Part shown: positions 1,116 to 19,933 of the stretch, one piece after another
How the letters are laid out: every line of letters begins with the position of its first letter
How positions within the stretch are numbered: position 1 is the first letter of the stretch
Assembly: GCA_963662545.2 (NCBI GenBank)
Contig: CAXXLL010000003.1
Coordinates: 64,001-128,000 of the forward strand
Source: Gammaproteobacteria bacterium
Lineage (GTDB): Bacteria; Pseudomonadota; Gammaproteobacteria; Ga0077536
Length of the DNA: 64,000 nucleotides
Direction: 5' to 3'
Program-made: the position numbers and the translations under genes
Notes under the pieces: model-generated
Databases searched by the model: none
Told to the model about the DNA's origin: nothing
What the model saw: the letters and a program-made list of their open reading frames with translations, nothing else

Positions 1116-1127
1116 CACCCTCCCCCA

Positions 1128-3274: not shown

Positions 3275-3468
3275 AACTCAAGTTCAGGATCGGAATTGCC
3301 GCGAAGCATTATAGTGCGCTCAGCGCAATGGGACTACGGGTGCGCTCTTTATAGAGCAGATATGGCGACTGTGGTAACGTACTCGAAGTAGAAAATCCAT
3401 GGTGGTTGCGAGCATGGATTTCGCTGTTAGCAATAATGTGAATCCTGCCTTTGGCAGAGAGCGAAGTC

Positions 3469-4743: not shown

Positions 4744-4756
4744 GGAGACCACGCTG

Positions 4757-6421
4757 ATGCTGACACGGCTGCAAGGCGGTCGCATTGTCGACCCGATGAA
4801 TGGCATCGACGGGGAGGTCAGGGATCTCTATATCCGGGGCGGCCGGATCGTTGCGGCGCCTGCGGATCCGCGCGAAGCAGACAATGTGATCGACGTCTCC
4901 GGGCGCGTCGTGATGGCGGGCGCGATCGATTTACACACCCACATCGGCGGCGGCAAGGTCAATATCGCGCGCATGATGCTGCCCGAAGATCATGCCCGCG
5001 ACCCGGTCGCCGCCCGACGCCACCCGCATGCCGGCTGCGGACATGCGGCACCGGCCACGCGAACGGCCGGCTATCGTTACGCTGAGATGGGCTACGTCGC
5101 ATGCTTTGAGCCTGCGATGCTAGCGCTGAACGCACGGCAGGCCCATATGGAAATGGCCGATACCCCGATGATCGACAAGGGCGGCTACGTGCTCTTGGGT
5201 AACGATGACTTTTTCCTGCGCGCTTTGAAGCAGAAGCGCGACCCGAAGTTCATCCGCGACTACGTCGCCTGGACACTGTGCGCAGCACAGGCCCTGGCGA
5301 TCAAAGTGGTCAACCCCGGCGGCATCAACGCCTTCAAGTACAATCAGCGCAAGCTCGACCTGGACGAGGCCAATTCGGCTTACGGGGTGACACCACGGCA
5401 GATCCTGCTCTCGCTGTCCGCGGCCGTGAGCGACCTCGGCCTGCCCCATCCGCTGCACATTCATGGCTGCAATCTCGGCGTGCCCGGCAACCTGGCGACG
5501 ACCCTCGATACCATCCGCGCGCTCGACGGGCTGCGTGTCCACCTGACCCATATTCAATTCCACAGCTACGGCACCGAAGGCGACCATCAGTTTTCTTCGG
5601 GTGCAGCGCAGATTGCCGAAGCGGTGAATGCCAGGCCCGACATTTCACTCGATGTCGGACAAGTCATGTTCGGGCAAACAGTGACGGAATCCGGCGACAC
5701 CATGCGGCAGTTTGCCGGCAGCGCCTACGCCGATCCGAAGAAATGGGTCGGCATGGACATCGAATGCGACGCCGGCTGCGGTGTGGTGCCTTTCCGCTAC
5801 AAAAATCGTAATTTCGTCAATGCCTTACAGTGGGCCATCGGCCTGGAGTTGTTCCTGCTGGTCGACGACCCCTGGCGCATCTTCCTGACCACCGATCACC
5901 CCAATGGCGCGCCCTTTACCAGCTACCCGCACCTCATCCGCCTGCTGATGGATCGCAGCTTTCGCAACGACATGCTGGCGACTATTAATCCGGAGGCGGC
6001 CGCAGCAAGCCATCTCGGTGCCCTCGATCGCGAATACAGCCTCTACGAGATCGCGATCATGACGCGGGCGGCGCCTGCGCGATCGCTCGGACTCGACGGA
6101 TTCGGGTCGCTCGGCGTCGGCGCGCGAGCCCACGTGACCGTGTACGAGGATCACGAGAACCGCGAGACCATGTTCGCCAGGCCGGAAACCGTCCTCAAGG
6201 ACGGCAAACTCATCGTGCGCGACGGCCGCGTCGTGGAGGAAGTCTCCGGTGCGACGCATGTCGTCCACCCGGAGTACGACCCCGGCATTGAAACCGAGTT
6301 GTCACGCTACTTCGACCGCTTCATGACGATAAAAAAGGATAACGTCCGCATAGCCGACGACGAGATCCGCGATGGCGGACGCGGCGAACTGGTGGTGCAT
6401 GCAACGGCAGCAAGCACGTGA
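4757..6421 (+). CDS. fhcA: formyltransferase/hydrolase complex subunit A (amidohydrolase, FwdA-like)
   Basis: IDLHTHIGGGKVN, HIHGCNLGVPGN, HLTHIQFHSYG, LTTDHPNGAPF. Confidence 0.95.
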   Translation: MLTRLQGGRIVDPMNGIDGEVRDLYIRGGRIVAAPADPREADNVIDVSGRVVMAGAIDLHTHIGGGKVNIARMMLPEDHARDPVAARRHPHAGCGHAAPATRTAGYRYAEMGYVACFEPAMLALNARQAHMEMADTPMIDKGGYVLLGNDDFFLRALKQKRDPKFIRDYVAWTLCAAQALAIKVVNPGGINAFKYNQRKLDLDEANSAYGVTPRQILLSLSAAVSDLGLPHPLHIHGCNLGVPGNLATTLDTIRALDGLRVHLTHIQFHSYGTEGDHQFSSGAAQIAEAVNARPDISLDVGQVMFGQTVTESGDTMRQFAGSAYADPKKWVGMDIECDAGCGVVPFRYKNRNFVNALQWAIGLELFLLVDDPWRIFLTTDHPNGAPFTSYPHLIRLLMDRSFRNDMLATINPEAAAASHLGALDREYSLYEIAIMTRAAPARSLGLDGFGSLGVGARAHVTVYEDHENRETMFARPETVLKDGKLIVRDGRVVEEVSGATHVVHPEYDPGIETELSRYFDRFMTIKKDNVRIADDEIRDGGRGELVVHATAAST

Positions 6422-7311
6422 AGATCAATGGCGTGCTGATCGACAACACCTTTGCGGAAGCGTTTCCGATGAAGGCGACGCGCTTGATCATCACAGCGAT
6501 GAATGACACCTGGGCGAATCATGCCGCGCAGGCCTTGACCGGCTTCGCGACCTCTGTCATCGCCTGCGGTTGCGAGGCGGGTATCGAACGCCCGCTGACG
6601 CCCAGCGAAACACCGGACGGCCGCCCGGGCGTCGCGGTGCTCTTGTTCACCATGAGCAAGAAGGAACTCGGCAAGCAGATTCAAAATCGCGTGGGACAAT
6701 GTGTATTGACGTCCCCGACGAGCGCCTGTTTTGCAGGATTCGATGAAGGCGAACCCATTGATCTCGGCAAGCAGTTGAGATTTTTCGGCGACGGCTACCA
6801 GATCTCCAAAAAGCTCGGTACGCGACGCTACTGGCGAATACCGGTCATGGATGGCGAGTTTCTGTGCGAGGAAATGACCCGTTTCACCAAAGGCATTGGC
6901 GGCGGCAATTTCCTCATGCTCGCGCGTGACCAGGCCGCCGCCCTGGCCGCATCCGAGCGGGCCGTAGCGGCGATGCAGAAAATACGCGGGGTCATCATGC
7001 CCTTCCCCGGCGGCGTGGTGCGTTCGGGCTCGAAAGTCGGGTCGAAGTACAAGGCGCTGCTGGCGTCGACGAATCATCCCTTCTGCCCCACCCTGAGAGG
7101 CGCCGTCAGCAGCGCATTGACGCCGGATATCGGCGCCGTGCTCGAGATCGTCATCGACGGGCTCGACGTGGCGTCGATCGAGGAAGCAACCCGGGTCGGT
7201 ATCCGCGCCGCATGCCGTGGCCGCGGGCACGGTCTGATCCGCATCAGCGCGGGCAATTACGGGGGCAGCCTCGGGCCCTATCATTTCCACTTGCGAAAGA
7301 TCCTGCGATGA
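6418..7311 (+). CDS. fhcD: formylmethanofuran:H4MPT formyltransferase
   Basis: FAEAF, GFATSVIACGCEAGIE, TPDGRPG, PFPGGVVRSGSKVGSKY, ISAGNYGG. Overlaps the fhcA stop. Confidence 0.96.
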   Translation: MKINGVLIDNTFAEAFPMKATRLIITAMNDTWANHAAQALTGFATSVIACGCEAGIERPLTPSETPDGRPGVAVLLFTMSKKELGKQIQNRVGQCVLTSPTSACFAGFDEGEPIDLGKQLRFFGDGYQISKKLGTRRYWRIPVMDGEFLCEEMTRFTKGIGGGNFLMLARDQAAALAASERAVAAMQKIRGVIMPFPGGVVRSGSKVGSKYKALLASTNHPFCPTLRGAVSSALTPDIGAVLEIVIDGLDVASIEEATRVGIRAACRGRGHGLIRISAGNYGGSLGPYHFHLRKILR

Positions 7312-8129
7312 GCGCACTGATCTTCGAGTTGCTCGACCCACCGGGGCGCAGTCTCGACCTCGCGGGCTTGAATCCCGCCAGCCTCGCCGGAAAATCGCTC
7401 GATGCAATCCGCCGGCTGCGCCTCCCGTATGGCCGCCGGCGGAAAGCACTGGGTGATCTTTTCAAGGTATCGGGGGACGCATCTTCCGAACTCAGCATCC
7501 TCGGCGTCAACCGGCACTGCCACCAGATCGGCCGGGGCATGGCTGACGGCATACTCGTCGTCCGCGGCCATGCCGGCGACGGTCTCGGGCGCGAAATGAG
7601 CGGCGGTCAGATACGTGCGAAAGGCAACGCCGGCGACGGCGTCGGCGCCGGCATGACGGGCGGTAGCATCACACTCACCGGATCTGTCGGCGACCGCGCG
7701 GGTGGTCTCGTTCCCGGTGCGACCCGCGGCATGAACGAAGGCATGATCCGGATTGGAAAATCTGCCGGCGCGAGGACGGGTGAACGCATGCGGCGGGGCT
7801 TTATTGTCATTGCGGGCGATGCGGGAGCGCACACCGGCGAGCGTATGATCGCCGGCACCATCGTCGTACTCGGCCAGTGCGGTGTCCACCCTGGTATTGG
7901 CATGCGCCGCGGCACGCTGCTGCTCGCCAAAGCGCCCACCTCGATGACACCGACGTTCAACGACTGCGGTGAATTCGAACTCGCGATCATCGCGATCCTA
8001 AAGAACTACATCGCCTCTCATGACCGCCGTCTAAAGCGCAGGCTCGAAATCTTCACCCGTGCGCGCCGCTGGTGCGGTGACATGTCATACGGCGGCAAGG
8101 GCGAAATCTTCATTGCGAGCGAGAACTGA
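7308..8129 (+). CDS. fhcC: formyltransferase/hydrolase complex subunit C (GXGXG beta-helix)
   Basis: Repeated G..M.GG.I motifs, GERMRRG, GIGMRRGTL, GKGEI. ATG 7308 overlaps the fhcD TGA. Confidence 0.93.
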   Translation: MSALIFELLDPPGRSLDLAGLNPASLAGKSLDAIRRLRLPYGRRRKALGDLFKVSGDASSELSILGVNRHCHQIGRGMADGILVVRGHAGDGLGREMSGGQIRAKGNAGDGVGAGMTGGSITLTGSVGDRAGGLVPGATRGMNEGMIRIGKSAGARTGERMRRGFIVIAGDAGAHTGERMIAGTIVVLGQCGVHPGIGMRRGTLLLAKAPTSMTPTFNDCGEFELAIIAILKNYIASHDRRLKRRLEIFTRARRWCGDMSYGGKGEIFIASEN

Positions 8130-8139
8130 GAGCGGATCC

Positions 8140-9804
8140 ATGCCCACCAAGCGCATTGACAGAAAAGGAAGGTTTCGCGGACGCGCGCTCGACGACGAGG
8201 CCGTCGCGCAGGTCGTGGGCCTCGTCGGCCAGGGTCCGTACCGACGCGATTTACTGATCGAATACCTGCATCTCATTCAAGACGTGCACGGCTGCCTGAG
8301 CGCCGAACACCTCGTGGCCTTGGCGCATTGTCTGCGATTGTCGACCACGGAGGTTTACGAAGTCGCCACTTTTTATCATCATTTCGATGTCGTCACCGCG
8401 GATGAGAAACGCCCGCCGGATCTGACCGTCCGGGTGTGCGATTCGATCACCTGCGAGATGTTCGGCGCGAGTGCGCTCTTCGATGAACTCGATGAGATTT
8501 TCGGTGAGAAGGTACGGGTGCAACGCGTGCCCTGCGTGGGCCGCTGTCACGGCGCACCCGTCGCGGTTGTCGGTCAGAACGCGATCGAACGCGCCGACAC
8601 CGCGAGCCTGATCGAACGGGTCGAACAGTGTGCGACGGCACCGCAGCCGACCTCGCATATCCCGTTCGACGAATACTGCAATGTCGGTGGATACGAGCTG
8701 TTGAAAAAATGCGTAAGGGGTGAAATCCAACGCGAGGCGGTCATCGACATCCTGGCCGATTCCGGCCTGCGAGGACTGGGCGGCGCCGGATTTCCGGCCG
8801 GCCGGAAATGGAGCATCCTGCGCGGCCAGCCGGCGCCCCGGCTGATCGCGGTCAACATCGACGAAGGCGAGCCGGGAACATTCAAGGATCGCTACTACCT
8901 CGAACGCGATCCGCACCGGTTCCTCGAGGGCTTGCTGATCGCCGCGTGGGCGATCGAAGCCGAGGGCTGCTATATCTACCTGCGAGATGAATATGCCGCG
9001 TGCCGCCGCATGCTCGTGGACGAACTCACACGCCTCGCCGCCGATCCGCCGGCGCCGCTCCCCGTCATGGAACTTCGCCGCGGTGCAGGCGCTTATATCT
9101 GTGGTGAAGAGTCAGCCATGATCGAATCGATCGAAGGTAAACGCGGCATGCCCCGGCTGCGCCCGCCTTACGTCGCCGAAGTCGGGCTGTTCGGGCGGCC
9201 GACGCTCGAACACAATATGGAAACCCTCTACTGGGTCCGCGATATCGTGGAAAAAGGGGCCGCATGGTTCAGCTCGCACGGCCGTCGCGAACGCTCGGGC
9301 TTGCGGGCATTCTCCGTCAGCGGCCGCGTCAACAACCCCGGTGTGCATCTGGCACCGGCGGGGATCTCGGTCAGCGAACTGATCGATGAATATTGCGGCG
9401 GCATGCTGGACGGCCATGCCTTCTACGGCTACTTCCCGGGCGGCGCGTCGGGCGGGATCCTCCCCGCCAGTCTCGGCGACCTGCCCCTCGATTTCGACAC
9501 GCTGCAGGAATACGGGTGCTTCATCGGCTCGGCAGCCATTATCATTTTGTCGGATCAGGACAATGCGCGGAGCGCGGCGCTCAATGCCATGCGGTTCTTC
9601 GAGCACGAATCCTGCGGTCAATGTACCCCGTGCCGGGTCGGCACTGCGAAGGCCGCGACGCTGATGGAGCGGCCCGCCTGGGATGCCCCGCTGCTCGAAG
9701 ATTTGGCGCGGGCCATGGAGGACGCATCGATCTGCGGCCTCGGGCAGGCGGCGCCGAATCCGCTGCGATGTGCAATAAAATACTTTCCGCAGGAATTCGA
9801 GTGA
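8140..9804 (+). CDS. fdh1B: NAD-dependent formate dehydrogenase beta subunit (NuoE/NuoF fusion; Fdh1B type)
   Basis: EVATFYHHF, VCDSITC, PCVGRC, LRGLGGAGFPAGRKW, NIDEGEPGTFKDR, GAGAYICGEESA, ESCGQCTPCRVG, ICGLGQAAPNP. Confidence 0.9.
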   Translation: MPTKRIDRKGRFRGRALDDEAVAQVVGLVGQGPYRRDLLIEYLHLIQDVHGCLSAEHLVALAHCLRLSTTEVYEVATFYHHFDVVTADEKRPPDLTVRVCDSITCEMFGASALFDELDEIFGEKVRVQRVPCVGRCHGAPVAVVGQNAIERADTASLIERVEQCATAPQPTSHIPFDEYCNVGGYELLKKCVRGEIQREAVIDILADSGLRGLGGAGFPAGRKWSILRGQPAPRLIAVNIDEGEPGTFKDRYYLERDPHRFLEGLLIAAWAIEAEGCYIYLRDEYAACRRMLVDELTRLAADPPAPLPVMELRRGAGAYICGEESAMIESIEGKRGMPRLRPPYVAEVGLFGRPTLEHNMETLYWVRDIVEKGAAWFSSHGRRERSGLRAFSVSGRVNNPGVHLAPAGISVSELIDEYCGGMLDGHAFYGYFPGGASGGILPASLGDLPLDFDTLQEYGCFIGSAAIIILSDQDNARSAALNAMRFFEHESCGQCTPCRVGTAKAATLMERPAWDAPLLEDLARAMEDASICGLGQAAPNPLRCAIKYFPQEFE

Positions 9805-9866
9805 GATGGATGCAAAGATCGCCGAAGGTACCGTGATCCGCTTCAAGCTCGATGGGCGCGAGGTCG
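9748..9866 (+). repeat. direct repeat copy 1 (fdh1B 3' end + fdh1A 5' start); copy 2 at 10747-10865
   Basis: 119-bp segments 999 bp apart, with about 12 mismatches by manual alignment. Confidence 0.92.
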
Positions 9867-9870
9867 CTTC
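9806..9870 (+). pseudogene. aborted duplicate of the fdh1A N-terminus
   Basis: MDAKIAEGTVIRFKLDGREV versus MDAKTADRTVIRFKLDGREV at 10805; homology decays after about 20 codons. Confidence 0.88.
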
Positions 9871-10014
9871 TCGCAATGCCGAGCCCCGCTACGCCGCCGC
9901 CCGAGGTATCGTTCTGTCGTCACACCGCGAACCGGGCCGCTTCTCAGCGTCGACGCGCGCGCTCGAAGCCCGTCGCAGCATCTCGAAAAACCCGCTTTGA
10001 ATGATCGTTGTCTA

Positions 10015-10314
10015 TCAATGGTAATCCTCTTCGCGCTGATGGCGAATCGCGAGTATCGTCACAGTGGATGGATCTTCGATCTCGAACAAGACCACGTACC
10101 CTGCCGATCCGAAAGGGATCAGGAGTTCACGCAGGAATGGATTGGTGTCATCCGCCTTGCGGCAGCTAAACGGAAAATCCTGCAGGAATTCGACGGCTTT
10201 GGCTATCGCATCACGAGCCCTCCTGGCTGCTTGAAGGTCCCTCTCAAGCAGGTATTCGTAAAGACGGAACAGATCCTCCCGTGCTACCCGGGTATAACGG
10301 ATCCGATAGCTCAA
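10015..10314 (-). CDS. RelE/ParE family type II toxin
   Basis: 99 aa; YRIRYT..AREDL.RL, FPFSCRKA, RELLIPFGSAGYVVLFEI, ILAIRHQRE. Confidence 0.88.
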   Translation of the reverse strand: MSYRIRYTRVAREDLFRLYEYLLERDLQAARRARDAIAKAVEFLQDFPFSCRKADDTNPFLRELLIPFGSAGYVVLFEIEDPSTVTILAIRHQREEDYH

Positions 10315-10592
10315 TCCTCTGAGCCCACACCGCGAGACTCAGCCACTTTGAGCATGTCATCAAGTTCAGAAAGAACGACATCAGCGGCGTAATACTCATT
10401 GGTCCGCTTTGCTTCATCGCGGGAAACCAAGCCACGTGAAATGAACTCCTCACGCACCTGCCGATGCAATATGGATGCTTTTATGGATTTTTCTACGAAA
10501 CTCGACAGACTCTCCCCCTCAGTCAGGACACTTTCAGCAGCTTTTCGTAGTTCGGGGGTCACTCGAAGTGTTGGAATATTGGCAGTTTTCAA
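10311..10592 (-). CDS. ribbon-helix-helix antitoxin (YlcI/YnfO-like)
   Basis: 93 aa; KTANIPTLRVTPELRKAAESVL..GESLSSFVE, EFISRGL.SRDEA. 4-bp overlap with the toxin gene. Confidence 0.85.
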   Translation of the reverse strand: MKTANIPTLRVTPELRKAAESVLTEGESLSSFVEKSIKASILHRQVREEFISRGLVSRDEAKRTNEYYAADVVLSELDDMLKVAESRGVGSED

Positions 10593-10607
10593 AATGACCT
10601 CTTGCGA

Positions 10608-10654
10608 CGCATTTGCGATGCGTTAAGTATGGCGTTAATTACCGGACTGGGCAA
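10608..10654 (-). promoter_or_regulatory. putative sigma70 promoter and operator of the RelE/RHH module
   Basis: On the minus strand, TTGCCC-17 bp-CATACT (10654-10626), followed by the inverted repeat ACGCAT-N5-ATGCGT (~10607-10623). Confidence 0.55.
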
Positions 10655-10746
10655 GTGGCCGATACCTTTATGAATACCTCGTGCCAGGTTATTGGTGTGG
10701 TTCAATAGGATTTTGAGGGATCTGACCCTGAGATGTCCTCGGATAC

Positions 10747-10865
10747 GCAGCGCCAAATCCGTTGCGATGCGCAATAAAATACTTTCCGGAGGAATTCGAA
10801 TGAGATGGACGCAAAGACCGCCGATCGAACCGTGATCCGCTTCAAGCTCGATGGCCGCGAGGTCG
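10747..10865 (+). repeat. direct repeat copy 2 (duplicate fdh1B 3' end + real fdh1A start)
   Basis: Encodes AAPNPLRCAIKYFPEEFE* versus ...FPQEFE* in fdh1B, followed by the fdh1A ATG at 10805. Confidence 0.92.
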
Positions 10866-13564
10866 AAGCGCTGCCCGGCGAAACCATCCTCAATGCCGCG
10901 CGCCGCACCGGTACCGAGATCCCGACGCTGTGCCACATGGACGGCTACCGTGCGGACGGCAATTGCCGCGCCTGCGTGGTCGAGATCAAGGGCGAACGCG
11001 TGCTCGCACCGGCGTGCTGCCGCCTGCCGAGCGAGGGGATGGAAGTGGAAGCCAGCAACGAGCGCGCGCGGTTTAGCCAGCGCATGGTCGTCGAAATGCT
11101 GCAATCCGATATGCCCGAGGGCGGCGCTTCGCCCTACACACCGCGTTCCGAACTCGACCATTGGTGCGAATTTCTCGGTGTCACCGAACCGCGTTTCCCA
11201 CGGCGCGCACAACCGCAAAAGGACCTCTCCAACCCGGCGATCGCCGTCAATCTCGACGCCTGTATCCAGTGCACGCGCTGTGTGCGAGCGTGCCGCGAGG
11301 AGCAGGTCAACGATGTCATTGGCTATGCCTTCCGCGGCACACATTCGAAGATCGTGTTCGATCTCGGCGACCCCATGGGCGACAGCACCTGCGTGAGCTG
11401 CGGCGAATGCGTGCAGGCCTGTCCGACCGGCGCATTGATGCCCGCCGAAGGCGCCGCCAATTTCGAGCCCGATCGCCAGGTCGAGTCGGCCTGTCCGTAT
11501 TGCGGTGTAGGCTGCCTCCTGACCTTCAATATCAGGAACGATCGCATCATCTACGTCGACGGCCGCGACGGCCCGTCGAACAACAGTCGCTTGTGCGTGA
11601 AAGGCCGCTACGGCTTCGATTACGTCCATCACCCCGATCGGCTGACCCGGCCCTTGATCCGCAAAGAGGGCGCCGCAAAGAGCTCCGAACTACTGACCCC
11701 GTCAGATATACCTGCATACTTTCGAAACGCGAGCTGGGACGAAGCCCTTGCATTCGCGAGTGGCGGACTCAAGGCTATACGCGATGCGCAAGGCGGCCAG
11801 GCGCTCGCAGGATTCGGCTGCGCCAAAGGCTCCAACGAGGAGGCGTATCTGTTTCAGAAGCTGGTCCGAACGGGCTTCGGCACGAACAACGTCGATCATT
11901 GCACCCGTCTTTGTCATGCATCGTCCGTGGCAGCGATGTTGGAGACCATCGGCTCGGGCAGCGTTTCCAACCAGGTGGCTGACGTGGCCCAGGCCGAAGT
12001 GATCATCGTGATCGGTGCGCGGCCGACGATGAACCATCCGGTCGCCGCCACTTTCATGAAGAACGCGGCCAAGGCCGGCACGACCCTGATCCTGATGGAT
12101 CCCTACCGCGCCGATCTCGCGCGGCACGCCGATTATTTTCTCCAGTTTCATGCGGACACGGACGTGCCGCTGCTGAACGCCATGATGCATACCATCATCG
12201 ACGAAAACCTGCACAATCCGGCGTTTATCGAAGCGCACACCGAGGGTTTCGAATCGCTCCAAGCCTGCGTGACGAACTACAGCCCGGAAAAAGTCGCTCC
12301 CATCTGCGGCATTCCCGCCGCCGCCATCAAGGAGGTTGCCCGCAAGTATGCGACGGCCAAGGCGTCCATGATTTTCTGGGGCATGGGGATTTCGCAGCAT
12401 GTTCATGGCACGGATAATGCGCGCTGCCTGATCGCGCTCGCCTTGCTCTGCGGGCAGATCGGCCGGCCGGGTTCCGGCATCCACCCGCTGCGCGGTCAGA
12501 ATAACGTTCAGGGCGCCTCGGACGTCGGTTTGATCCCCATGGTTTATCCGGATTACCAACCCGTCGGGGACGAAGCGGTACGGCGCAAGTTCGAAAAATT
12601 CTGGGGCACCGAACTCGACCCCAACCCGGGTCTGACGGTCGTCGAAATCATGGATGCCGTGCACGAAGGCGCGATCAAGGGTATGTACATCATGGGGGAA
12701 AACCCGGCGATGTCGGATCCCAATCTCAATCATGCGCGTGCAGCCCTGGCGAAGCTCGAGCACCTGGTCGTGCAGGATATTTTCTTCACCGAGACGGCGG
12801 GGTTCGCTGACGTGATTCTGCCGGCGTCGGCGTTTCCGGAAAAAACCGGTACCTTCACGAACACCGATCGACGCGTGCAAATAGGCCGCCAGGCCATCGA
12901 GCCGCCCGGCGATGCGCGCCACGATATCTGGATCATCGAGGAAATGGCGAGGGGCCTCGGCCTCGACTGGAATTACTCGGGCGTCGATGCCGTATTCGAC
13001 GAGATGCGTGCGGCGATGCCCAGTATCGGCGGCATCACATGGGACCGCCTGCAACGCGAACATTCCGTGACCTATCCCTGCACGCGCGAAGGCGATCCAG
13101 GGCAACCGATTCTGTTCGAACAGGATTTTCCGACGCCGAACGGCCGCGGTAAGTTCGTACCGGCCGAATACACCCATGCCGCCGAGCTGCCCGACGACGA
13201 ATATCCGAAAATATTCATGACCGGCCGTCAGCTAGAACACTGGCACACCGGAAGCATGACCCGCAACGCGCGTGTCCTCGACGCACTGGAGCCGGAACCC
13301 GTGATCAACGTTCACCCGACGGATATGGACGAGATCGGGGTCGAAGCAGGCGAATTCGTGCGCGTCGAATCACGGCGCGGCGCCGTCGTGGCCCGCGTGC
13401 GAGCGGATAGCGGAATGCAGACCGGTTCGATCTTCATGGCGTTCTGCTACGTGGAAGCGGCGGCTAACCTGCTGACCACCGAAGAACTCGATCCCGTCGG
13501 AAAGATCCCGGAATTCAAATACTGCGCCGTACGAATTTCAAGGCAGAAGGCCAAAGTCGCCTGA
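10805..13564 (+). CDS. fdh1A: formate dehydrogenase alpha subunit (Fdh1A type, W/Mo-bisPGD, N-terminal Fe-S domains)
   Basis: 919 aa; 2Fe-2S motif GNCRAC, 4Fe-4S motifs CIQCTRC, CVSCGECVQACPTG and CPYCGVGC, active site DHCTRLCHASS, PLRGQNNVQG, TGRQLEHWHTG, KIPEFKYCAV. Confidence 0.93.
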   Translation: MDAKTADRTVIRFKLDGREVEALPGETILNAARRTGTEIPTLCHMDGYRADGNCRACVVEIKGERVLAPACCRLPSEGMEVEASNERARFSQRMVVEMLQSDMPEGGASPYTPRSELDHWCEFLGVTEPRFPRRAQPQKDLSNPAIAVNLDACIQCTRCVRACREEQVNDVIGYAFRGTHSKIVFDLGDPMGDSTCVSCGECVQACPTGALMPAEGAANFEPDRQVESACPYCGVGCLLTFNIRNDRIIYVDGRDGPSNNSRLCVKGRYGFDYVHHPDRLTRPLIRKEGAAKSSELLTPSDIPAYFRNASWDEALAFASGGLKAIRDAQGGQALAGFGCAKGSNEEAYLFQKLVRTGFGTNNVDHCTRLCHASSVAAMLETIGSGSVSNQVADVAQAEVIIVIGARPTMNHPVAATFMKNAAKAGTTLILMDPYRADLARHADYFLQFHADTDVPLLNAMMHTIIDENLHNPAFIEAHTEGFESLQACVTNYSPEKVAPICGIPAAAIKEVARKYATAKASMIFWGMGISQHVHGTDNARCLIALALLCGQIGRPGSGIHPLRGQNNVQGASDVGLIPMVYPDYQPVGDEAVRRKFEKFWGTELDPNPGLTVVEIMDAVHEGAIKGMYIMGENPAMSDPNLNHARAALAKLEHLVVQDIFFTETAGFADVILPASAFPEKTGTFTNTDRRVQIGRQAIEPPGDARHDIWIIEEMARGLGLDWNYSGVDAVFDEMRAAMPSIGGITWDRLQREHSVTYPCTREGDPGQPILFEQDFPTPNGRGKFVPAEYTHAAELPDDEYPKIFMTGRQLEHWHTGSMTRNARVLDALEPEPVINVHPTDMDEIGVEAGEFVRVESRRGAVVARVRADSGMQTGSIFMAFCYVEAAANLLTTEELDPVGKIPEFKYCAVRISRQKAKVA

Positions 13565-13594
13565 ATTTCTAATCGACCGTTCTGAACGCACAAC

Positions 13595-13660
13595 GTATCC
13601 GGGAAATCGTGGGCCAAATCGCACCGACCCCCGGATTGCGCTGCGCTTCATCCGGGCTAC
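13595..13660 (-). repeat. GTAG-class REP palindrome plus a truncated partner (REP doublet remnant)
   Basis: Minus strand reads GTAGCCCGGATGAAGCGCAGCGCAATCCGGG (13660-13630), then a spacer, then CCCGGATAC (13603-13595). Confidence 0.65.
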
Positions 13661-13674
13661 GGCCTTCATAGGTG

Positions 13675-14058
13675 TTATGTGGCTCTTGATTTAGAGTAGA
13701 GTTTGACATCCCTTAGTCCCTTGAAATCGGTATCTTGGGTCCACAGAACTGCGCCATATTTCTGTGCGGTTGCATAAATAATGCTATCCGCCAACGGCAA
13801 TTTGTGTTCAATACCGTAACAGGCGGCATCTACAGCCAGCTCGCTGTCCAGGGATACAACTTTTCCTTGCTCCATATGAGCTATTGCTTCAAGGGCTGAT
13901 TCTTCGTCCCTCTGACGCACAATGCTCTTGAAAACCTCGGTAATGGTGATACTGGGCACCAATAACTCTTCTAAAACCTCTATCGGTTTAGCGAATGAGC
14001 CCGCATTCTTGTCGCCGGCGAAATATGATAACCATCCCGATGAGTCGACGACATTCAT
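13675..14058 (-). CDS. vapC: PIN-domain VapC toxin
   Basis: MNVVDSSGWL.Y, VPSITITEVFK, LPLADSIIYATA, LWTQD.DF. Confidence 0.92.
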   Translation of the reverse strand: MNVVDSSGWLSYFAGDKNAGSFAKPIEVLEELLVPSITITEVFKSIVRQRDEESALEAIAHMEQGKVVSLDSELAVDAACYGIEHKLPLADSIIYATAQKYGAVLWTQDTDFKGLRDVKLYSKSRAT

Positions 14059-14261
14059 ACCCTGTCTTTATCTCGCCTTACATTCGTATCAATGCCTTTC
14101 AGGAAGCCTCTCATTTTCTTCATGGGCTTTATAGGAATGAGTTCGATCCGATTTTGATAGGTGAGAACTTGAATCTTCTGGCCGGAATATATTCCCATTG
14201 ACTCCCGCACTTTTTTGGGAATCACGATTTGATATTTCGGTGAAACGGTTACAGCAGTCAC
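14055..14261 (-). CDS. AbrB/MazE/SpoVT antitoxin
   Basis: VTVSPKYQIVIPKKVRESMGI..GQK. 4-bp overlap with vapC. Confidence 0.92.
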   Translation of the reverse strand: MTAVTVSPKYQIVIPKKVRESMGIYSGQKIQVLTYQNRIELIPIKPMKKMRGFLKGIDTNVRRDKDRV

Positions 14262-14293
14262 GGCCGATACTCCATCGATAATAGCACCGTTTT

Positions 14294-14322
14294 ACGATAT
14301 CTCTATCGATAAGCTCCGTCAA
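14294..14322 (-). promoter_or_regulatory. putative sigma70 promoter of the vapBC module
   Basis: Minus strand TTGACG-17 bp-TATCGT upstream of the RBS GGAG and GTG 14261. Confidence 0.65.
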
Positions 14323-14425
14323 GCCACGTAACGAACGAGTCTCACGGATCCCCACATACTCGCTAGGAAAAGCGATCGAAAACTAATGAGATGTAGGTGC
14401 ACCGAACCTCAATTAAGCGCGCGAG

Positions 14426-15200
14426 CACGAACACCGATCGACGCGTGCAAATAGGCCGCCAGGCCATCGAGCCGCCCGGCGATGCGCGCCACGATATCTG
14501 GATCATCGAGGAAATGGCGAGGGGCCTCGGCCTCGACTGGAATTACTCGGGCGTCGATGCCGTATTCGACGAGATGCGTGCGGCGATGCCCAGTATCGGC
14601 GGCATCACATGGGACCGCCTGCAACGCGAACATTCCGTGACCTACCCCTGCACGCGCGAAGGCGATCCAGGGCAACCGATTCTGTTCGAACAGGATTTTC
14701 CGACGCCGAACGGCCGCGGTAAGTTCGTACCGGCCGAATACACCCATGCCGCCGAGCTGCCCGACGACGAATATCCGAAAATCTTCATGACCGGCCGTCA
14801 GCTAGAACACTGGCACACCGGAAGCATGACCCGCAACGCGCGTGTCCTCGACCTACTGGAGCCGGAACCCGTGATCAACGTTCACCCGACGGACATGGAC
14901 GAGATCGGCGTCGAAGCGGGCGAATTCGTGCGCGTCGAATCACGGCGCGGCGCCGTCGTGGCCCGCGTACGGACGGATCCCGGGATACAGCCCGGCAGCC
15001 TATTCATGGCGTTTTGCTATGTGGAAGCTGCCGCGAATTTGTTGACGACCGAAGAGCTGGACCCGGTAGGAAAGATCCCCGAATTCAAATATTGCGCAGT
15101 GAGATTGAGGAAAGCCATTGACAATTCAGCTCCGCGCTCCCACATTCCACGGTTTAATTCCGCACAGGGCGATGGTCGCGAACGAGACGGGCATCGATGA
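14426..15200 (+). pseudogene. duplicated 3' part of fdh1A with an alternative C-terminus
   Basis: 14426-~15110 repeats 12856-~13540 (offset 1570). Nearly identical at the 5' side and clearly diverged over the last ~140 bp. Ends ...CAVRLRKAIDNS...GHR* versus ...CAVRISRQKAKVA*. Confidence 0.92.
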
Positions 15201-15212
15201 GTCCGCAACACA

Positions 15213-16334
15213 ATGCCCCAACCTGAAGCGCTCTCAAATCTATCCCCGGCGAAGAAGCTCCTGGCCGGGCTGCTCACTCTGCTTGTTTTGGGTGCGGGTA
15301 TCCTCGCCCTTGCGGAAGGGGCGGTGCGGGTGCGTGCCTGGATCAAATACGGCTCCGCCGATCATTTCGACGAGATGTACTACTACGACGAGCAACTGGG
15401 GCTCAAATACGTGGTGCCGAACTACCGCACCCGGACTGTACAGGTCAATTCGATCGGCTTCCGCGGACCGGAGCTGGAAGTCAAGTCCGAGTCGACCTTG
15501 CGCATCGGGTTCCTGGGAGGTTCGACGACCTTTTGCGCGGAGGTGAGCGGCAACGATCAGGTGTGGGCGGCTTTGCTCAGCGCCAATCTACAATCGGCCT
15601 TTCCCGGGCTTGATGTCGATTACGTCAATGGTGGAGTACCCGGGTATACCCTCGAACAGTCTCTCAAGAACCTCGAACGGCGAGTCGCCCCGCTCGATCC
15701 AGACGTCATCGTTATCTACCACGCTTCAAACGACATGACCGGAGAGACTCGCGAGCTAGCGAAGGAATCAGGAATATTGCGCGAATTTCATCGGGACCCG
15801 AGCTGGCTCGCACGACATTTCCTGCTTTGGCATCTTGCGGAAATGAATCTAAAGATCCTTCTAGTCAAACGGGAAGGCGACGAACAGAAGCTGAAGTTAT
15901 TTCCCGATGACTTCGGCGCCGAATTCGATCAGAAGTTGGAACACCTGATCGCGAGTGCTCAGAAAGTCGCCGAAATCGTCGTGGTAGTGACCTGGACCCA
16001 GCAAATTCGCGAGCAACAGTCACCCGCACAACAACTCGAGGCCGCATCGTCCGGCTTGTACTACATGCCGTTCATGACCCCGACGAGTCTCCTGGAAGCC
16101 TACGGACGTTACAATACAGCGATTCGAAACGCCGCCACCCGTACCGGCGCCATTCTGGTTGAGGAGGAGAATTCCATTCCGGGCGATGGCGCGCATTTTA
16201 ACGACACCGTGCACTTCAAAGACGCTGGCAGTCGAGCGATGGCGGACCGCATCGCCCGCCGGCTACTGGAATCGCCGCGACTGAAAGCGCTCGTCCAAAA
16301 GAAGCTCCTAAACTCGATGGAGAAGAAATCGTGA
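15213..16334 (+). CDS. membrane-anchored SGNH/GDSL hydrolase
   Basis: N-terminal TM with AEGAVR; NSIGFRG, GFLGGSTTF (block I), NGGVPGY, HASND, FNDTVHF (DxxH). Confidence 0.85.
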   Translation: MPQPEALSNLSPAKKLLAGLLTLLVLGAGILALAEGAVRVRAWIKYGSADHFDEMYYYDEQLGLKYVVPNYRTRTVQVNSIGFRGPELEVKSESTLRIGFLGGSTTFCAEVSGNDQVWAALLSANLQSAFPGLDVDYVNGGVPGYTLEQSLKNLERRVAPLDPDVIVIYHASNDMTGETRELAKESGILREFHRDPSWLARHFLLWHLAEMNLKILLVKREGDEQKLKLFPDDFGAEFDQKLEHLIASAQKVAEIVVVVTWTQQIREQQSPAQQLEAASSGLYYMPFMTPTSLLEAYGRYNTAIRNAATRTGAILVEEENSIPGDGAHFNDTVHFKDAGSRAMADRIARRLLESPRLKALVQKKLLNSMEKKS

Positions 16335-16720
16335 CGCCGGTTCGTCAGAGCAATCGTGCCTTCGCATTAATGTTCGCAATCGTGTTCGCGATCATCACTT
16401 TGCTTGGTTGGTTTTTCTTTGAAAAGACGCCCATTTGGGCGGTTTGGGTAAGTGGCGCGCTGTTATTGGTTGCCTGGGTGTGCCCTGGGGTCCTGCTGCC
16501 GCTGAATCGATTGTGGGGTCTTTTCGCGTTTCGGCTCGGCACGGTGAGCAACGTACTTGTCCTGGGTATCGTACTTTACGGAATATTCGCACCCCTAGCA
16601 TTCTTCTTTCGAGTTATCGGCCGTGATTTGATGAATCGCGACATGGATCCAGCGGCCGATACCTATCTGACCCGGGTCGATCGCCAGATGGATTCAAACA
16701 GTCTCGACGACATGTACTAA
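16331..16720 (+). CDS. SxtJ family membrane protein
   Basis: SNRAFALMF, PGVLLPLNRLW, P.AFFFRVIGRDLM. Confidence 0.8.
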   Translation: MTPVRQSNRAFALMFAIVFAIITLLGWFFFEKTPIWAVWVSGALLLVAWVCPGVLLPLNRLWGLFAFRLGTVSNVLVLGIVLYGIFAPLAFFFRVIGRDLMNRDMDPAADTYLTRVDRQMDSNSLDDMY

Positions 16721-16730
16721 GGAATTGCCT

Positions 16731-16883
16731 GTGATCTCGTTGTTCAAAGAAATCCTGAAGTATGTAATAGCTTCCAAGAAGCTATGGCTATTACCAATCA
16801 TTGTGCTGCTAGTCGCGCTCGGTGGGCTCCTTGTGCTGGCCGAAGGGACCGCGTTCGCGCCGTTCATTTACGCTATCTTCTGA
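16731..16883 (+). CDS. SxtK/DUF5989 small membrane protein (50 aa)
   Basis: Hand translation MISLFKEILKYVIASKKLWLLPIIVLLVALGGLLVLAEGTAFAPFIYAIF*. Below the ORF-track cutoff. Confidence 0.85.
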   Translation: MISLFKEILKYVIASKKLWLLPIIVLLVALGGLLVLAEGTAFAPFIYAIF

Positions 16884-16921
16884 CGGGCTCATTTCGGGCC
16901 ATTAACACGACTGGGCTATTC

Positions 16922-17297
16922 ATGCTTGTCCTGGGAATATCTGCTTTCTATCACGACAGCGCTGCCGCTCTCGTAAGGGATGGCGAGATTGTGGCCGCCG
17001 CCCAGGAAGAGCGATTCTCGCGAAAGAAGGGTGATTCCGACTTCCCCACCGGCGCCGTAAAGTTCTGCCTGGAATCGTGCGGCGTCTCGGTCGACGAAAT
17101 CGACTTCGTGGGGTTTTACGATAAGCCGCTGCTGACATTCGACCGCTTACTTGAGACCTATCTCGGTTATGCCCCGAAAGGACTGCCGTCATTCCGTAGA
17201 TCGATTCCACTTTGGGTAAAGGAAAAATTGCTCATCAAGAAAACGGTCCGAGAGCAGATCACTCATCTCGGACTCGGCGATCTTCCCGAACGTAAAG
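16922..17297 (+). pseudogene. O-carbamoyltransferase (NodU/CmcH/SxtI family) N-terminus, truncated by IS21
   Basis: LGISAFYHDSAAAL, AAAQEERFSRKK, FYDKPLL.FDRLLETY. The frame enters the IS end at 17298 and the rest is not in the window. Confidence 0.9.
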
Positions 17298-17499
17298 TGT
17301 CAACGGCGGAGCAAAATTAGTCCACCCGGGCGGAGCAAAACTAGTCCACTTAACGTTATGCGGTACGCAGTGTTGGGGGGTTGTCCCGGTAGTCCATAGG
17401 AGGGACCCGCGCTGCTTCGTGTAGCGCTTGCGTTACGCGGAGCGAAGCAGCGTGGGAGGTTCCTGTGGACCCACACCGGGTCAACCTTGAGTTCGGTGG

Positions 17500-18270
17500 T
17501 CAAGCAGGCGTATTTGGGGATTTCCGCCGTTTTTGGCTTTGGTTGAGACGATAGCTCTCGCCGTTCATTTCCAGGATATGGACAGGGTGGGTCAGGCGGT
17601 CCAGCAAAGCCCCGGTCAGACGTTCCGAGCCGAATATCTCCGTCCACTCATCGAACGGCAAGTTGGAGGTCACCATGATCGAGCCCCGCTCGTAGCGCTG
17701 GCTGAAGACTTCGAACAGCAGCTCGGCGCCGGTCTTCGAGAGCGGCACGAAGCCGAGTTCGTCGATGATCAGAAGGTGATACTTTGCCAGTTGCTTCTGC
17801 AGGCGCAACAGGCGTTTTTCATCCCTGGCCTCCATCAGTTCATGAACCAGGGCGGCGGCCGTGATGAAGCCGACGGAGAGCCCCTTTTGGCAGGCCGCCA
17901 GACCGAGACCGAGGGCGATATGGGTCTTGCCGGTTCCGCTGTTGCCGAGCGCGATGATATTCTCACGACGCTCTACGTATTCGCATCGCGCCAACTCCAG
18001 AACCAGCATCTTGTTGAGCGAGGCGATGGCCTTGAAGTCGAAGCTGTCGAGGCTTTTGACGGCGGGGAACCTAGCCTGTCTGCTCCGCCGCTCGACCATG
18101 CGGCGCTCACGGTCGATCAGTTCCAACTCGGTCAGACGGACAAGATACCGCACAGGGTCGGCGCCCTCGGTGGCGCATTGGCGGGCCAGCTTGTCGTATT
18201 CGCGCAGGAACGTCGGCAGTTTCAGGGTCTTGAGGTGATGGGCCAGCAACACTTGCGGCGTATCGGTCAT
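17500..18270 (-). CDS. istB: IS21 helper ATPase
   Basis: Walker A GNSGTGKTH, Walker B LLIIDELG, TSNLPF.EW, ALLDRL. Confidence 0.95.
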   Translation of the reverse strand: MTDTPQVLLAHHLKTLKLPTFLREYDKLARQCATEGADPVRYLVRLTELELIDRERRMVERRSRQARFPAVKSLDSFDFKAIASLNKMLVLELARCEYVERRENIIALGNSGTGKTHIALGLGLAACQKGLSVGFITAAALVHELMEARDEKRLLRLQKQLAKYHLLIIDELGFVPLSKTGAELLFEVFSQRYERGSIMVTSNLPFDEWTEIFGSERLTGALLDRLTHPVHILEMNGESYRLNQSQKRRKSPNTPA

Positions 18271-19766: not shown

Positions 19767-19933
19767 CCTCCCGCCTTCCATCTCAAAAAAGATCGAAGGC
19801 TACAGGTGGCAGAGTTTTACTCCGCCCGCGGCTGGGAAATCCCGCCGCTTCCGTGGACTAATTTGTCACCGCCGTTCTCACGTATGTAGCATAGGCAATC
19901 AACTGACCTTGACTAGAGATCGAAAAGGCGCCC

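Follow-up and report, generated by a model that had tools for sequence, protein, structure and literature searches.

When a piece of DNA integrates by a Campbell-type single crossover, e.g., a suicide plasmid with a gene fragment, the cargo comes to lie between two direct copies, each of which is a reciprocal chimera of donor and recipient, and the gene is intact only where the homologous piece includes the gene end. Insertion with long target duplication was reportedly described by Nobusato et al. in 2000. Toxin-antitoxin pairs are said to stabilise chromosomal regions or integrated elements, work that is attributed to Szekeres et al. (2007) and to Wozniak and Waldor (2009). Restriction-modification systems have been found inserted with long target duplication (Furuta, Abe and Kobayashi 2010, PMC2853133). 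The authors proposed that such systems enter, amplify via the repeats and are released again, in a cycle like that of a virus, and double-strand breakage by the restriction enzyme was suggested as the common cause (PMC2853133). Homology-facilitated illegitimate recombination (HFIR) has been described, as have displacement arrays of T6SS effector-immunity, Rhs and CDI toxin modules (Kirchberger et al. 2017, PMC5361080). In natural transformation, a tandem duplication was described to arise when a short piece of donor DNA pairs at two sites, across the sister chromatids (Johnston et al. 2013, PMC3784515).

The locus that is compared with these systems is an fdhBA operon in a window of 64,000 nt from a gammaproteobacterial contig. 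The initial annotation had claimed that fdhA is flanked by two toxin-antitoxin pairs antisense to the operon, that each pair is bounded by direct repeats of fdh coding sequence, that one intact copy of each gene is left, and that neither module contains an integrase or transposase. All four points were confirmed.

Two toxin-antitoxin pairs between direct repeats of fdh sequence

Both genes of the operon are located on the plus strand. The gene fdhB (8059-9804) encodes an intact FDH beta subunit with a fused NuoE/NuoF-like architecture (Pfam Complex1_51K, NADH_4Fe-4S, 2Fe-2S_thioredx) and is collinear with its counterpart in L001, a relative with 92-94% DNA identity. The gene fdhA (10805-13564) encodes an intact tungsten-type alpha subunit of 919 aa, assigned with Pfam and solved structures, the best of which is the alpha subunit of a tungsten-containing formate dehydrogenase (1270 bits), and FdhA has the same length in L001 and in a further genome, L019. 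L019 is a more distant relative than L001. Both reading frames are whole despite the two sets of repeats. In L001 the sites of both modules are empty, and, thus, both modules are insertions. The two copies of each repeat map onto a single L001 sequence.

Module 1 is bounded by a direct repeat of the junction between the fdhB end and the fdhA start (DR1), which is 129 nt long, with 114 of 129 nt identical (88%) and a period of 999. The left copy (9738-9866, plus strand) consists of the native fdhB end (9738-9804) followed by a 5' fragment of a foreign fdhA allele (9806-9866), and the right copy (10737-10865, plus strand) consists of a 3' fragment of a foreign fdhB allele (10737-10804) followed by the native fdhA start. 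The 870 nt of cargo in between (9867-10736, minus strand) have no counterpart in L001 and a G+C content of 0.53 versus 0.63 in the flanks; the cargo of module 2 is also low in G+C. The pair (10015-10592) is encoded antisense to fdh and comprises a ParE/RelE-family toxin of 99 aa (10015-10314, minus strand; Pfam ParE_toxin, E 1.2e-16; 3409 homologues in the homologue search) and an antitoxin of 93 aa with a YlcI/YnfO-type N-terminus (10311-10592, minus strand; NCBIfam YlcI_YnfO_N, E 1.8e-11), the genes of which overlap by 4 nt. The predicted structure of the antitoxin complex had an ipSAE of 0.87 versus 0.00 for the best control. The same gene pair is also annotated in plasmids of Burkholderiaceae.

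Module 2 is bounded by a direct repeat of the fdhA 3' end (DR2), i.e., 675 nt with 94% identity and a period of 1570 (12856-13530 versus 14426-15100, plus strand). The right copy is the displaced native fdhA 3' fragment; it extends to 15113, where it is cut 20 nt short of the native stop, and is 95.9% identical to L001 over 688 nt. The truncation is caused by a separate 4.9-kb foreign segment (15114-20002), which takes the place of 121 nt of the L001 arrangement and contains genes for a GDSL lipase and an SxtJ-like protein, an N-terminal fragment of a carbamoyltransferase gene and, at its end, an IS21 element. Local alignment of the left and right flanks gave scores of 580 for DR2 and 91.5 for DR1, while the best of 20 shuffles reached 13.5 and 12.5, respectively, and thus neither repeat is due to chance. 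Just past the stop codon of fdhA lies a REP-like palindrome (13630-13661), which has matches directly downstream of fdhA in L018 (32 nt, 4481-4512) and L007 (31 nt, 7456-7486). The antisense pair (13675-14261) consists of a VapC toxin of 127 aa (13675-14058, minus strand; Pfam PIN, E 2.4e-16; 4666 homologues) and a VapB antitoxin of 68 aa with an AbrB/MazE fold (14055-14261, minus strand; Pfam MazE_antitoxin, E 1.5e-7; TIGR01439, E 1.4e-13). The translation of vapC contains the acidic residues D5, E41, D91 and D109/D111, which we take to be the PIN catalytic positions.

An own promoter had been claimed for each pair. Two overlapping sigma-70-like sites were indeed present upstream of vapB (14322-14278, minus strand), as consensus matches of a kind that is no commoner than by chance (3 sites in the region versus a mean of 2.8 in shuffles), but none was found for module 1. 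Neither the open reading frames nor Pfam revealed an integrase or transposase between the repeats of module 1 or module 2, and the nearest mobility gene belongs to the IS21 copy at 17298-19881.

Allelic composition of the repeat copies and recurrence

The differences between the two DR2 copies are distributed very unevenly, with 7 over the first 541 nt and 54 over the last 168 nt, from 13397 to the fdhA stop at 13564 (Fisher p 1e-29). The working fdhA changes abruptly at about 13397 to a foreign tail that is nearest to L019, and the displaced fragment retains the native tail. The tail of the working gene (13397-13564, plus strand) matches L019 best (85% over 168 nt), with L001 missing from the top 6 matches. 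It encodes ...AVRISRQKAKVA, and the L019 counterpart reads ...AVRISRQQAQVA. Compared with the right copy, 24 codons differ synonymously and 8 non-synonymously. In contrast, the tail of the right copy has L001 as its best match (91%). The suggestion that the gene was restored with a donor allele was thus supported, in that the intact fdhA bears a donor-type 3' end. Of all codons that differ between the repeat copies 37/51 are synonymous (binomial p below 1e-9 at 30% expected), and therefore both copies evolved inside working genes under purifying selection. The description of the repeats as diverged alleles with many synonymous differences was borne out by this count, but for DR2 it applies mainly to the tail.

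For DR1, the left copy is identical to L001 at 63/67 positions in the fdhB part and at 52/62 in the fdhA part, and the right copy at 58/67 and 58/62. This pattern hints that the copies may be reciprocal chimeras with native and diverged halves swapped (Fisher p 0.057 for DR1 taken alone). Decay of dead fragments would also yield this pattern, and only the synonymous bias (8/13 codons) speaks against decay. The fdhB fragment in the right copy differs from the working fdhB by 6 synonymous and 2 non-synonymous codons. With its short length, its 88% identity and a longest perfect block of 26 nt, DR1 is a poor substrate for recombination.

The part of fdhA that precedes the foreign tail (12764-13396) is unusually similar to L001, with 14 mismatches in 633 nt versus 26 in the adjoining upstream 364 nt (p 3e-4). 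The same contrast was seen for the right copy of DR2 (15/541 versus 13/147, p 0.003). The L001-likeness of both copies in this region points to the import of a pre-formed module 2, and its ready-made import by double crossover would fit better than a fresh single crossover at this site. If a diverged donor had recombined by one simple single crossover, the 5' part of the right copy would be expected to be of donor type. The first 541 nt of the right copy are about 99% identical to the left copy, and therefore an extra step is needed, which could be gene conversion or the arrival of the module in ready-made form.

The same layout was also found in other genomes. In L018 an MNT/HepT-like pair is located downstream of fdhA between 187-nt repeats, i.e., different cargo at the same anchor, as had been anticipated. 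In addition, a Gp49/HigB-like toxin gene together with an HTH gene lies in L046 between 147-nt repeats of the rpe 3' end, i.e., at the end of a different gene. L018 and L046 are unrelated assemblies, and L007 shares the cassette of L018. In total, nine toxin-antitoxin modules were present in 81 sequences (1.44 Mb), five of them downstream of fdhA at a distance of up to about 1.5 kb, compared with an expected number of 0.76 (Poisson p 0.001). Long flanking repeats were found at 4/15 toxin-antitoxin loci tested, a census that is biased because the repeat-positive cases were found via the repeat search and the ORF-pair filter missed L018 and L046. Long repeats were absent from 4/8 testable modules in the loci (one of these, L006, with only 247 nt of left flank), from 5/5 plasmid relatives of module 1, and from mazEF and yafNO of E. 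coli K-12.

Origin of the insertions

The observations are best explained if bare type II toxin-antitoxin cassettes were inserted into the fdhBA operon on two independent occasions, via homologous recombination with target-bearing donor DNA, and were maintained by addiction (probability roughly 0.6). The donor of each cassette would have been a related lineage, and the incoming DNA would have included that lineage's version of the target, i.e., the junction of fdhB end and fdhA start for module 1 and, for module 2, the fdhA 3' end together with the stop codon and the terminator-like palindrome. Homologous recombination by the host inside the shared piece would link the donor DNA to the chromosome, and the other junction is non-homologous. 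The structure matches either a one-ended, homology-facilitated illegitimate event or a single crossover of Campbell type in which the fragment was circular or concatemeric. As a gene end lies within the shared piece, one gene copy stays complete, with a native and a donor part, and a dead fragment remains on the opposite side. A finished unit could pass between related strains when the fdh sequence on its two sides undergoes an ordinary double crossover, which is most likely how module 2 entered this genome. The direct repeats would normally recombine and delete the insert. Loss of the cassette, however, would free the stable toxin and the deletants would be removed, which would explain why toxin-antitoxin pairs are the surviving cargo of repeat-flanked insertions.

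An unlikely alternative is an origin of the modules from integrase-borne islands, or from satellites using an integrase in trans, that inserted site-specifically at a gene end, brought a replacement end along and later lost everything but the toxin-antitoxin pair. With a newly supplied gene end, a native fragment that is displaced and direct repeats, the modules resemble the attL and attR sites of elements that target gene 3' ends, e.g., e14 and phage 21 at icd. In DR2, the element could have brought the entire left copy from 12856 onwards, with the right copy being native throughout, and the IS21 and further foreign DNA lie just downstream. However, none of the four repeat-flanked modules carries an integrase, their cargo comprises only 851-1096 nt, and their repeats range from 129 to 675 nt, with no common junction motif found across the four. 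DR1 covers a stop/start junction and has donor sequence at the inner side of either copy, and the integrase would have to have been lost completely and independently four times, each time with the toxin-antitoxin pair alone being spared. That a cassette was trapped by an old local tandem duplication or a replication template switch, with subsequent decay of the dead fragments and no donor allele, is very improbable. Template switching is known to produce duplications with an insertion at the join, and the L001-like working halves and more diverged dead halves of DR1 match decay, but in DR2 the diverged, L019-like tail belongs to the working copy, and it is the dead copy that resembles L001. 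Furthermore, the differences are mostly synonymous even in dead fragments (6/8 codons in the fdhB fragment), and neither insertion is present in L001.

It is very improbable that alleles of two strains were threaded in tandem through the cassettes during assembly. The diverged copies do resemble strain variants, the related records are metagenome-assembled genomes, and L043, a frameshift-rich assembly, has a cargo-free tandem duplication of 1340 bp at the same fdhB/fdhA junction. Yet such a path assembles only if every junction is present in real molecules, the working genes keep intact reading frames, and the layout is repeated in independent assemblies. In addition, a nearly identical pair of 2.58-kb IS21 copies in the window (2577/2582 identical) was resolved separately, and the contig on which the VapC cluster is recorded has a length of 5.8 Mb.

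The initial annotation had suggested that the modules may be minimal selfish units. The insertions, the alleles, the donor end and the recurrence agree with insertion by recombination, but long repeats characterise only a minority of the loci, DR2 disfavours a fresh single crossover, and the idea has a precedent in the restriction-modification insertions described in PMC2853133. Taken together, the results suggest that ordinary homologous recombination can bring toxin-antitoxin pairs into chromosomes and that the pairs need no enzyme of their own for this.

Comparison with described systems

DR1 fits a Campbell-type single crossover exactly. In contrast to Campbell-type integration, a replicon or vector is absent, and the first 541 nt of the right DR2 copy are not visibly of donor type. 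The tandem duplications described for transformation offer a way in which the structure found here could form from linear DNA; they are 100-900 kb long, lie between IS-derived repeats and have no foreign cargo or link to toxin-antitoxin systems (PMC3784515). As in the displacement arrays, a conserved part of a gene would anchor the incoming DNA, and the former 3' end becomes an orphan fragment downstream of a new one, which comes with its protective partner (PMC5361080). However, the host gene encodes a metabolic enzyme rather than a toxin whose C-terminus varies, the toxin-antitoxin cargo forms its own antisense operon, and HFIR, as described there, usually deletes recipient DNA, whereas here DNA was duplicated (PMC5361080).

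As in the systems in which toxin-antitoxin pairs act as stabilisers, the stable toxin would select against deletion of the pair. The work on stabilisation deals with superintegron arrays and conjugative elements, not with 1-kb inserts between duplicated host gene ends.

The closest resemblance is to the restriction-modification insertions. In both cases an addiction-type gene pair was inserted without a mobility gene, the direct repeats are long and variable (46 to about 420 bp in the cases described) and align to one sequence in an empty relative, and insertion is often at gene 3' ends (PMC2853133). Unlike in the cases described there, the cargo is a type II toxin-antitoxin pair, and the repeat copies are allelic mosaics of donor and recipient; therefore, the duplication was not copied from the recipient's own target (PMC2853133). 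Double-strand breakage as a cause is not applicable to ParE or VapC. By analogy with the systems described in PMC2853133, the class of event would be insertion with long target duplication, and the idea thus has a precedent.

The fdh operon and its two antisense gene pairs

The source of the window is a methylotroph. Tetrahydromethanopterin-pathway genes (mch, an ATP-grasp gene and fhc-type genes) are located at 132-8129, and a XoxF-type PQQ dehydrogenase is encoded at 22342-24237. The formate dehydrogenase operon contains two intact genes, fdhB (8059-9804), which encodes a fused NuoE/NuoF-like subunit, and fdhA (10805-13564), which encodes a protein of 919 aa. The naming as fdh1 is reasonable, because the top solved relative of FdhA is the alpha subunit of a tungsten-containing formate dehydrogenase (1270 bits). 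Two small operons were found on the strand opposite to fdh, one between fdhB and fdhA, and the other after fdhA.

The operon between fdhB and fdhA, module 1, encodes a ParE-family toxin (10015-10314, minus strand), which matches positions 1-87 of the 89 positions of the Pfam profile ParE_toxin (E 1.2e-16). The gene directly upstream in the same operon (10311-10592, minus strand) overlaps the toxin gene by 4 nt (10311-10314) and encodes an antitoxin of 93 aa with a YlcI/YnfO-type N-terminus. A plasmid search with the module 1 cargo DNA revealed only distant matches, i.e., eight records with 64-73% identity. The pairing of RelE/ParE with YlcI/YnfO was annotated in five of the eight (Burkholderiaceae), and it was present in four retrieved records. 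The model of the toxin-antitoxin (TA) complex had an ipSAE of 0.87, compared to 0.00 for the best of three controls; of the solved complexes, 116 of 157 attain the ipSAE mark, as do 2 of 215 mismatched pairs, counts that are rough because own alignments were used. The contact agreement between runs was at least 93%, and the pLDDT of the partner was at least 86. The model supports binding of the YlcI/YnfO-type antitoxin to the ParE-family toxin, but its pass may mirror likeness to solved complexes, because ParE-antitoxin complexes are already among them. A type II TA system of the ParE/RelE family fits module 1 with respect to the toxin fold, the conserved operon partner and the binding predicted in silico. 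On the plasmid pBRH02 (2505-4325) a relative of module 1 and another pair, which consists of a Phd/YefM antitoxin gene and a PIN-domain gene, are separated by 600 nt and form a small TA cluster.

The operon after fdhA, module 2, is a VapBC system by gene content. The vapC gene (13675-14058, minus strand) encodes a PIN-domain toxin (E 2.4e-16), and its translation contains all of the acidic residues D5, E41, D91 and D109/D111, which we take to be the catalytic residues of the PIN domain. The vapB gene (14055-14261, minus strand) is located upstream, overlaps vapC by 4 nt, and encodes an antitoxin of the AbrB/MazE type (MazE_antitoxin, E 1.5e-7; AbrB-family TIGR01439, E 1.4e-13). The plasmid search with the module 2 cargo DNA gave zero matches. 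The initial annotation had assigned an own promoter to each pair. This is only partly supported, since sigma-70-like hexamers were seen upstream of vapB and none upstream of module 1, and the number of sigma-70-like matches in the TA region was not above that of shuffled sequences.

Direct repeats, empty sites and allelic mosaics

Both pairs are enclosed by direct repeats of fdh sequence. DR1, a repeat of the junction between the fdhB end and the fdhA start, comprises 129 nt, of which 114 are identical (9738-9866 versus 10737-10865), and DR2, a repeat of the fdhA 3' end, comprises 675 nt with 94% identity (12856-13530 versus 14426-15100). The periods of 999 and 1570 had already been proposed in the initial annotation, and both were confirmed by alignment of the left with the right flanks: the scores were 91.5 for DR1 and 580 for DR2, versus maxima of 12.5 and 13.5 for 20 shuffles.

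A scan for FdhA, with one genome per species, led to 80 loci. The closest locus, L001, has a DNA identity of 92-94% across 24 kb of shared sequence. In L001, fdhB and fdhA are contiguous, and they are directly followed by the genes that start at 20003 in the window. Both copies of DR1 align with one and the same L001 sequence (9933-10061, 129 nt), and both copies of DR2 align with another one (12052-12739, 675-688 nt). Modules 1 and 2 are insertions.

The cargo consists of the TA genes only, with sizes of 870 nt (module 1) and 895 nt (module 2), and has a G+C content of 0.53 and 0.47, respectively, versus 0.63 and 0.59 in the flanks. Also the claim that neither module has an integrase or transposase was borne out, as no recombinase gene is present between the repeats. 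A tyrosine or serine recombinase gene, the hallmark of an integrase-mediated integrative element, was detected neither between nor beside the repeats of either module, and the nearest mobility genes are istA and istB of an IS21 element at 17.3-19.9 kb. Features of a transposon or IS are lacking as well: there is no transposase, no inverted repeat was found to bracket either cargo, and the duplications of 129 and 675 nt are not short target duplications. The cargo-flank pieces 10593-10736 and 14262-14425 were compared with the loci in a search for relics of former hosts, and no match was obtained; for 13565-13674 the only matching part was a palindrome. Between 9867-10014 and locus L071 a weak tblastx match was obtained (E 0.008), which was regarded as a chance hit and not as such a relic.

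The repeat copies had been described as diverged alleles with many synonymous differences, and indeed 37 of the 51 differing codons in all repeat segments are synonymous. The left copy of DR1 is identical to L001 at 63 of 67 positions in the fdhB end and at 52 of 62 positions in the fdhA start, while the respective values for the right copy are 58 of 67 and 58 of 62. Because of this reversal, the working halves are native-like, and the dead inner halves represent a more distant allele. Between the dead fdhB fragment and its working counterpart, six codons differ synonymously and two non-synonymously, a ratio that is unexpected under random decay (p 0.004-0.011); the reciprocal DR1 pattern alone is weak (p 0.057).

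The DR2 copies have 7 differences over the first 541 nt versus 54 over the final 168 nt (from 13397 through the fdhA stop at 13564; p 1e-29). From about 13397, the working left copy has a foreign tail, which among the loci is most similar to L019, a more distant relative (85% over 168 nt, stop included). The foreign tail encodes ...AVRISRQKAKVA, and the L019 counterpart encodes ...AVRISRQQAQVA. The displaced right copy has retained an L001-type tail (91%). Within the 110 nt past the foreign fdhA stop there is a REP-like palindrome (13630-13661, about 32 nt), which is also found directly after the fdhA stop in the loci L018 (4481-4512) and L007 (7456-7486). Its position after fdhA in these two loci suggests that the donor DNA supplied the natural fdhA end together with downstream sequence. 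The FdhA proteins of the three genomes with this palindrome differ by about 27%. The empty L001 sites and the mosaic repeat copies show that the TA modules are insertions with donor alleles, in line with the earlier view.

A separate foreign segment of 4.9 kb (15114-20002) truncates the right DR2 copy 20 nt short of the native stop. Its first part (15114-17320) contains a GDSL lipase gene, an SxtJ-like gene, a 52-aa ORF and the N-terminal fragment of a carbamoyltransferase, the first 178 aa, cut by IS21; the rest of this gene was not found within the window. In L019, a related SxtJ/DUF5989/carbamoyltransferase cluster follows fdhA on the opposite strand and in a different order. Two IS21-family copies with istA and istB (17298-19881 and 50144-52725) have the same orientation and enclose about 30 kb, in which the XoxF cluster and polysaccharide genes are located. 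The two copies may form a composite element, or they may provide a substrate for deletion or duplication. A 118-aa ORF (35895-36251, minus strand) matches only positions 1-80 of the 293 positions of the Polysacc_synt_3 profile and is probably a flippase gene fragment; its full-length homologue is located at 60510-62225.

Repeat-flanked TA cargo at other loci

Self-comparison of each of the 80 loci, and of the window up to 26 kb, revealed seven direct-repeat pairs of at least 100 nt with at least 88% identity and a spacing of at most 2 kb. Four of the seven flank TA cargo, i.e., the two window modules and one module each in L018 and L046. In L018, repeats of 187 nt from the fdhA 3' end (period 1283) enclose an MNT/HepT-like pair (weak Pfam and NCBIfam matches), so that the anticipated different TA cargo at the same anchor was indeed found in another genome. 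L007 is 92.5% identical to L018 and has the same cassette after fdhA, within which its contig terminates. In L046, a Gp49/HigB-like gene and an HTH gene are flanked by repeats of 147 nt (period 998), which are made up of the rpe 3' end plus 90 nt of downstream sequence. A junction motif common to the four repeat-flanked modules was not found, and each could use its own site.

The remaining three repeat pairs, in L043, L004 and L064, are without TA cargo. L043, a candidate Eremiobacterota MAG, contains a cargo-free tandem duplication of 1340 bp with 91.5% identity at the same fdhB-end/fdhA-start junction (7613-10293); the sequence quality is doubtful, because both fdhB copies are frameshifted at the same place. 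The repeat pair in L004 represents tandem copies of a large repeated ORF, which looks like an IS transposase, and the repeat in L064 belongs to a multi-copy short repeat family. Repeats in L073 (69 nt, Uma2) and L007 (50 nt, BrkB-family gene) were set aside as short and unclear, and the low-identity rows of the screen were paralogues.

A census of adjacent small ORFs comprised 205 pairs with 320 ORFs, of which 307 + 5 were scanned, the remaining eight being antisense ORFs inside the window modules; it is biased, and it is incomplete, as its filter missed the pairs of L018 and L046. The census added four modules: a HicAB-like pair in L004, HigB with an HTH gene in L006, and FitA-like plus PIN pairs, which are located directly after fdhA in L008 and, in L078, after fdhA plus a Uma2 gene. 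Flanking repeats were not found for any of the four, and thus long repeats surround four of the eight testable TA modules in the window and the loci. TA modules are enriched up to about 1.5 kb downstream of fdhA (5 of 9 observed versus 0.76 expected, p 0.001), also when L018 and L007 are counted as one event (p 0.008). In the Binatia, the spacer between fdhA and the DUF2237 gene is empty in L068 and contains a Uma2-family nuclease gene in L073; L075 aligns with the Uma2 stretch of L073 without a confirmed gene, and L078 contains Uma2 plus a VapBC-like pair. Flanking repeats were not found at these four spacers (about 12700-14700).

Homologues of the four window TA proteins were absent from the 80 loci at E 1e-4. 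The five plasmid relatives of module 1 had no long flanking repeats: four records had flank scores of 10.5-14.0, below shuffle maxima of 14.5-16.5, and pBRH02 scored 12.5 versus 11.5 for shuffles, a marginal match of 30 nt. The pairs mazEF (relA-mazG) and yafNO (dinB-yafP) of E. coli K-12, which are named as intercistronic insertions in a 2020 TA review (PMC7167474), had only chance repeats of 18-29 nt. Either repeat-flanked entry is one of several routes, or its traces are lost over time. Contigs of only 0.5-3 kb are the source of many close ParE, VapC and antitoxin homologues, and assemblies may tend to break around such TA cassettes.

Route of entry and comparison with known systems

An assembly artefact could in principle generate the window structure, but several observations speak against this. 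Two IS21 copies, 33 kb apart and identical at 2577 of 2582 aligned bases, in addition to a 2-nt indel, are resolved in the window; the contig recorded for the VapC cluster has a length of 5,809,490 nt; the working fdh genes are intact; and the repeat-flanked TA layout was seen again in independent assemblies. The best explanation, with a probability of roughly 0.6, is that two independent insertions of TA cassettes took place by homologous recombination with a donor that carried a piece of the target, and that the cassettes are held by addiction. The mechanism put forward in the initial annotation is thus supported in part: the insertion, the donor alleles, the lack of a recombinase and the recurrence are established, and circles, a single crossover as the route taken, addiction and a locking-in of the FDH gene stay hypothetical. 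The observed layout would result if a circular or concatemeric fragment, consisting of target piece and cargo, had integrated by a single crossover. In a single-crossover insertion the gene stays intact if the homologous piece includes the gene end, and one intact gene survives here because the homologous piece spans a gene end. One junction lies within homologous sequence, i.e., the allele switch at about 13397 inside fdhA, and the other is without homology; the onset of homology is abrupt at 14425/14426 and at 10736/10737. The DR1 pattern is an exact fit to the single-crossover prediction, and an equally good fit is a one-ended, homology-anchored event with joining across sister chromosomes, as has been proposed for duplications made by transformation (PMC3784515).

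For module 2 the history may have been longer. Up to 12763, the window fdhA has 5-18 mismatches to L001 per 100 nt, and from 12764 to 13396 the mismatches drop to 14 in 633 nt (p 3e-4). The right DR2 copy has 15 mismatches to L001 in the first 541 nt and 13 in the 147 nt of its tail (p 0.003), and the tail is at the background divergence from L001. Based on these mismatch densities, the simplest reading is that module 2 was imported ready-made: it would have been formed earlier with both repeats in a lineage with an L001-like fdhA, and would then have reached this genome through an ordinary double crossover, the arms of which lay near 12764 and near 14966-14985. Gene conversion between the DR2 copies is an alternative to import of a preformed module.

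The locus carries the scars of two integrations, together with an empty-site relative and identifiable donor-type alleles. This adds evidence that such a duplication consists of donor alleles and recipient alleles that homologous recombination has joined, suggests why TA pairs and not other genes persist between duplicated gene ends, explains the short fdhA and fdhB pseudogene fragments beside TA pairs in the genome annotation, and may explain breaks in metagenome assemblies at such TA loci. It is a tentative and rather unlikely extension that the cassettes are recombinase-free mobile elements, with a borrowed gene end as attachment site, RecA-dependent entry, exit as a circle of about 1 kb, and post-segregational killing. 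If true, conserved gene ends like the fdhA 3' end would be landing pads across phyla, and there would be one general answer to the colonisation of chromosomes by TA systems.

The closest known class is the insertion with long target duplication, which was found for restriction-modification (R-M) systems by genome comparison, and for which a virus-like cycle of entry, amplification through repeats, and release was proposed (PMC2853133). In a later review of the same school the mode is assigned to R-M systems only (PMC3874152), and in the 2020 TA review the way TA systems move and integrate is called unknown and their insertion sites non-random (PMC7167474). The literature searched, mostly outside subscription journals, contained no description of type II TA pairs between long host-coding duplications. 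As in the R-M class, the modules are absent from L001, the flanks of which align on both sides, the repeats are longer than 30 bp with both copies on one sequence of the empty genome, and the inserts are smaller than 20 kb without another mobile-element gene. In contrast to that class, the cargo is a TA pair and not homologues of R and M genes. The modules thus agree with three of the four stated features, and because of the cargo they are a variant rather than a member of the class, which adds a second class of addiction cargo to the idea proposed for R-M systems. Homology-facilitated illegitimate recombination is similar in that there is one homologous and one non-homologous junction, but in the window the recipient DNA was duplicated, and neither replaced nor deleted. 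The layout also resembles the arrays of T6SS effector-immunity genes, Rhs and CDI systems, in which an incoming 3' end with a partner gene displaces the old 3' end.
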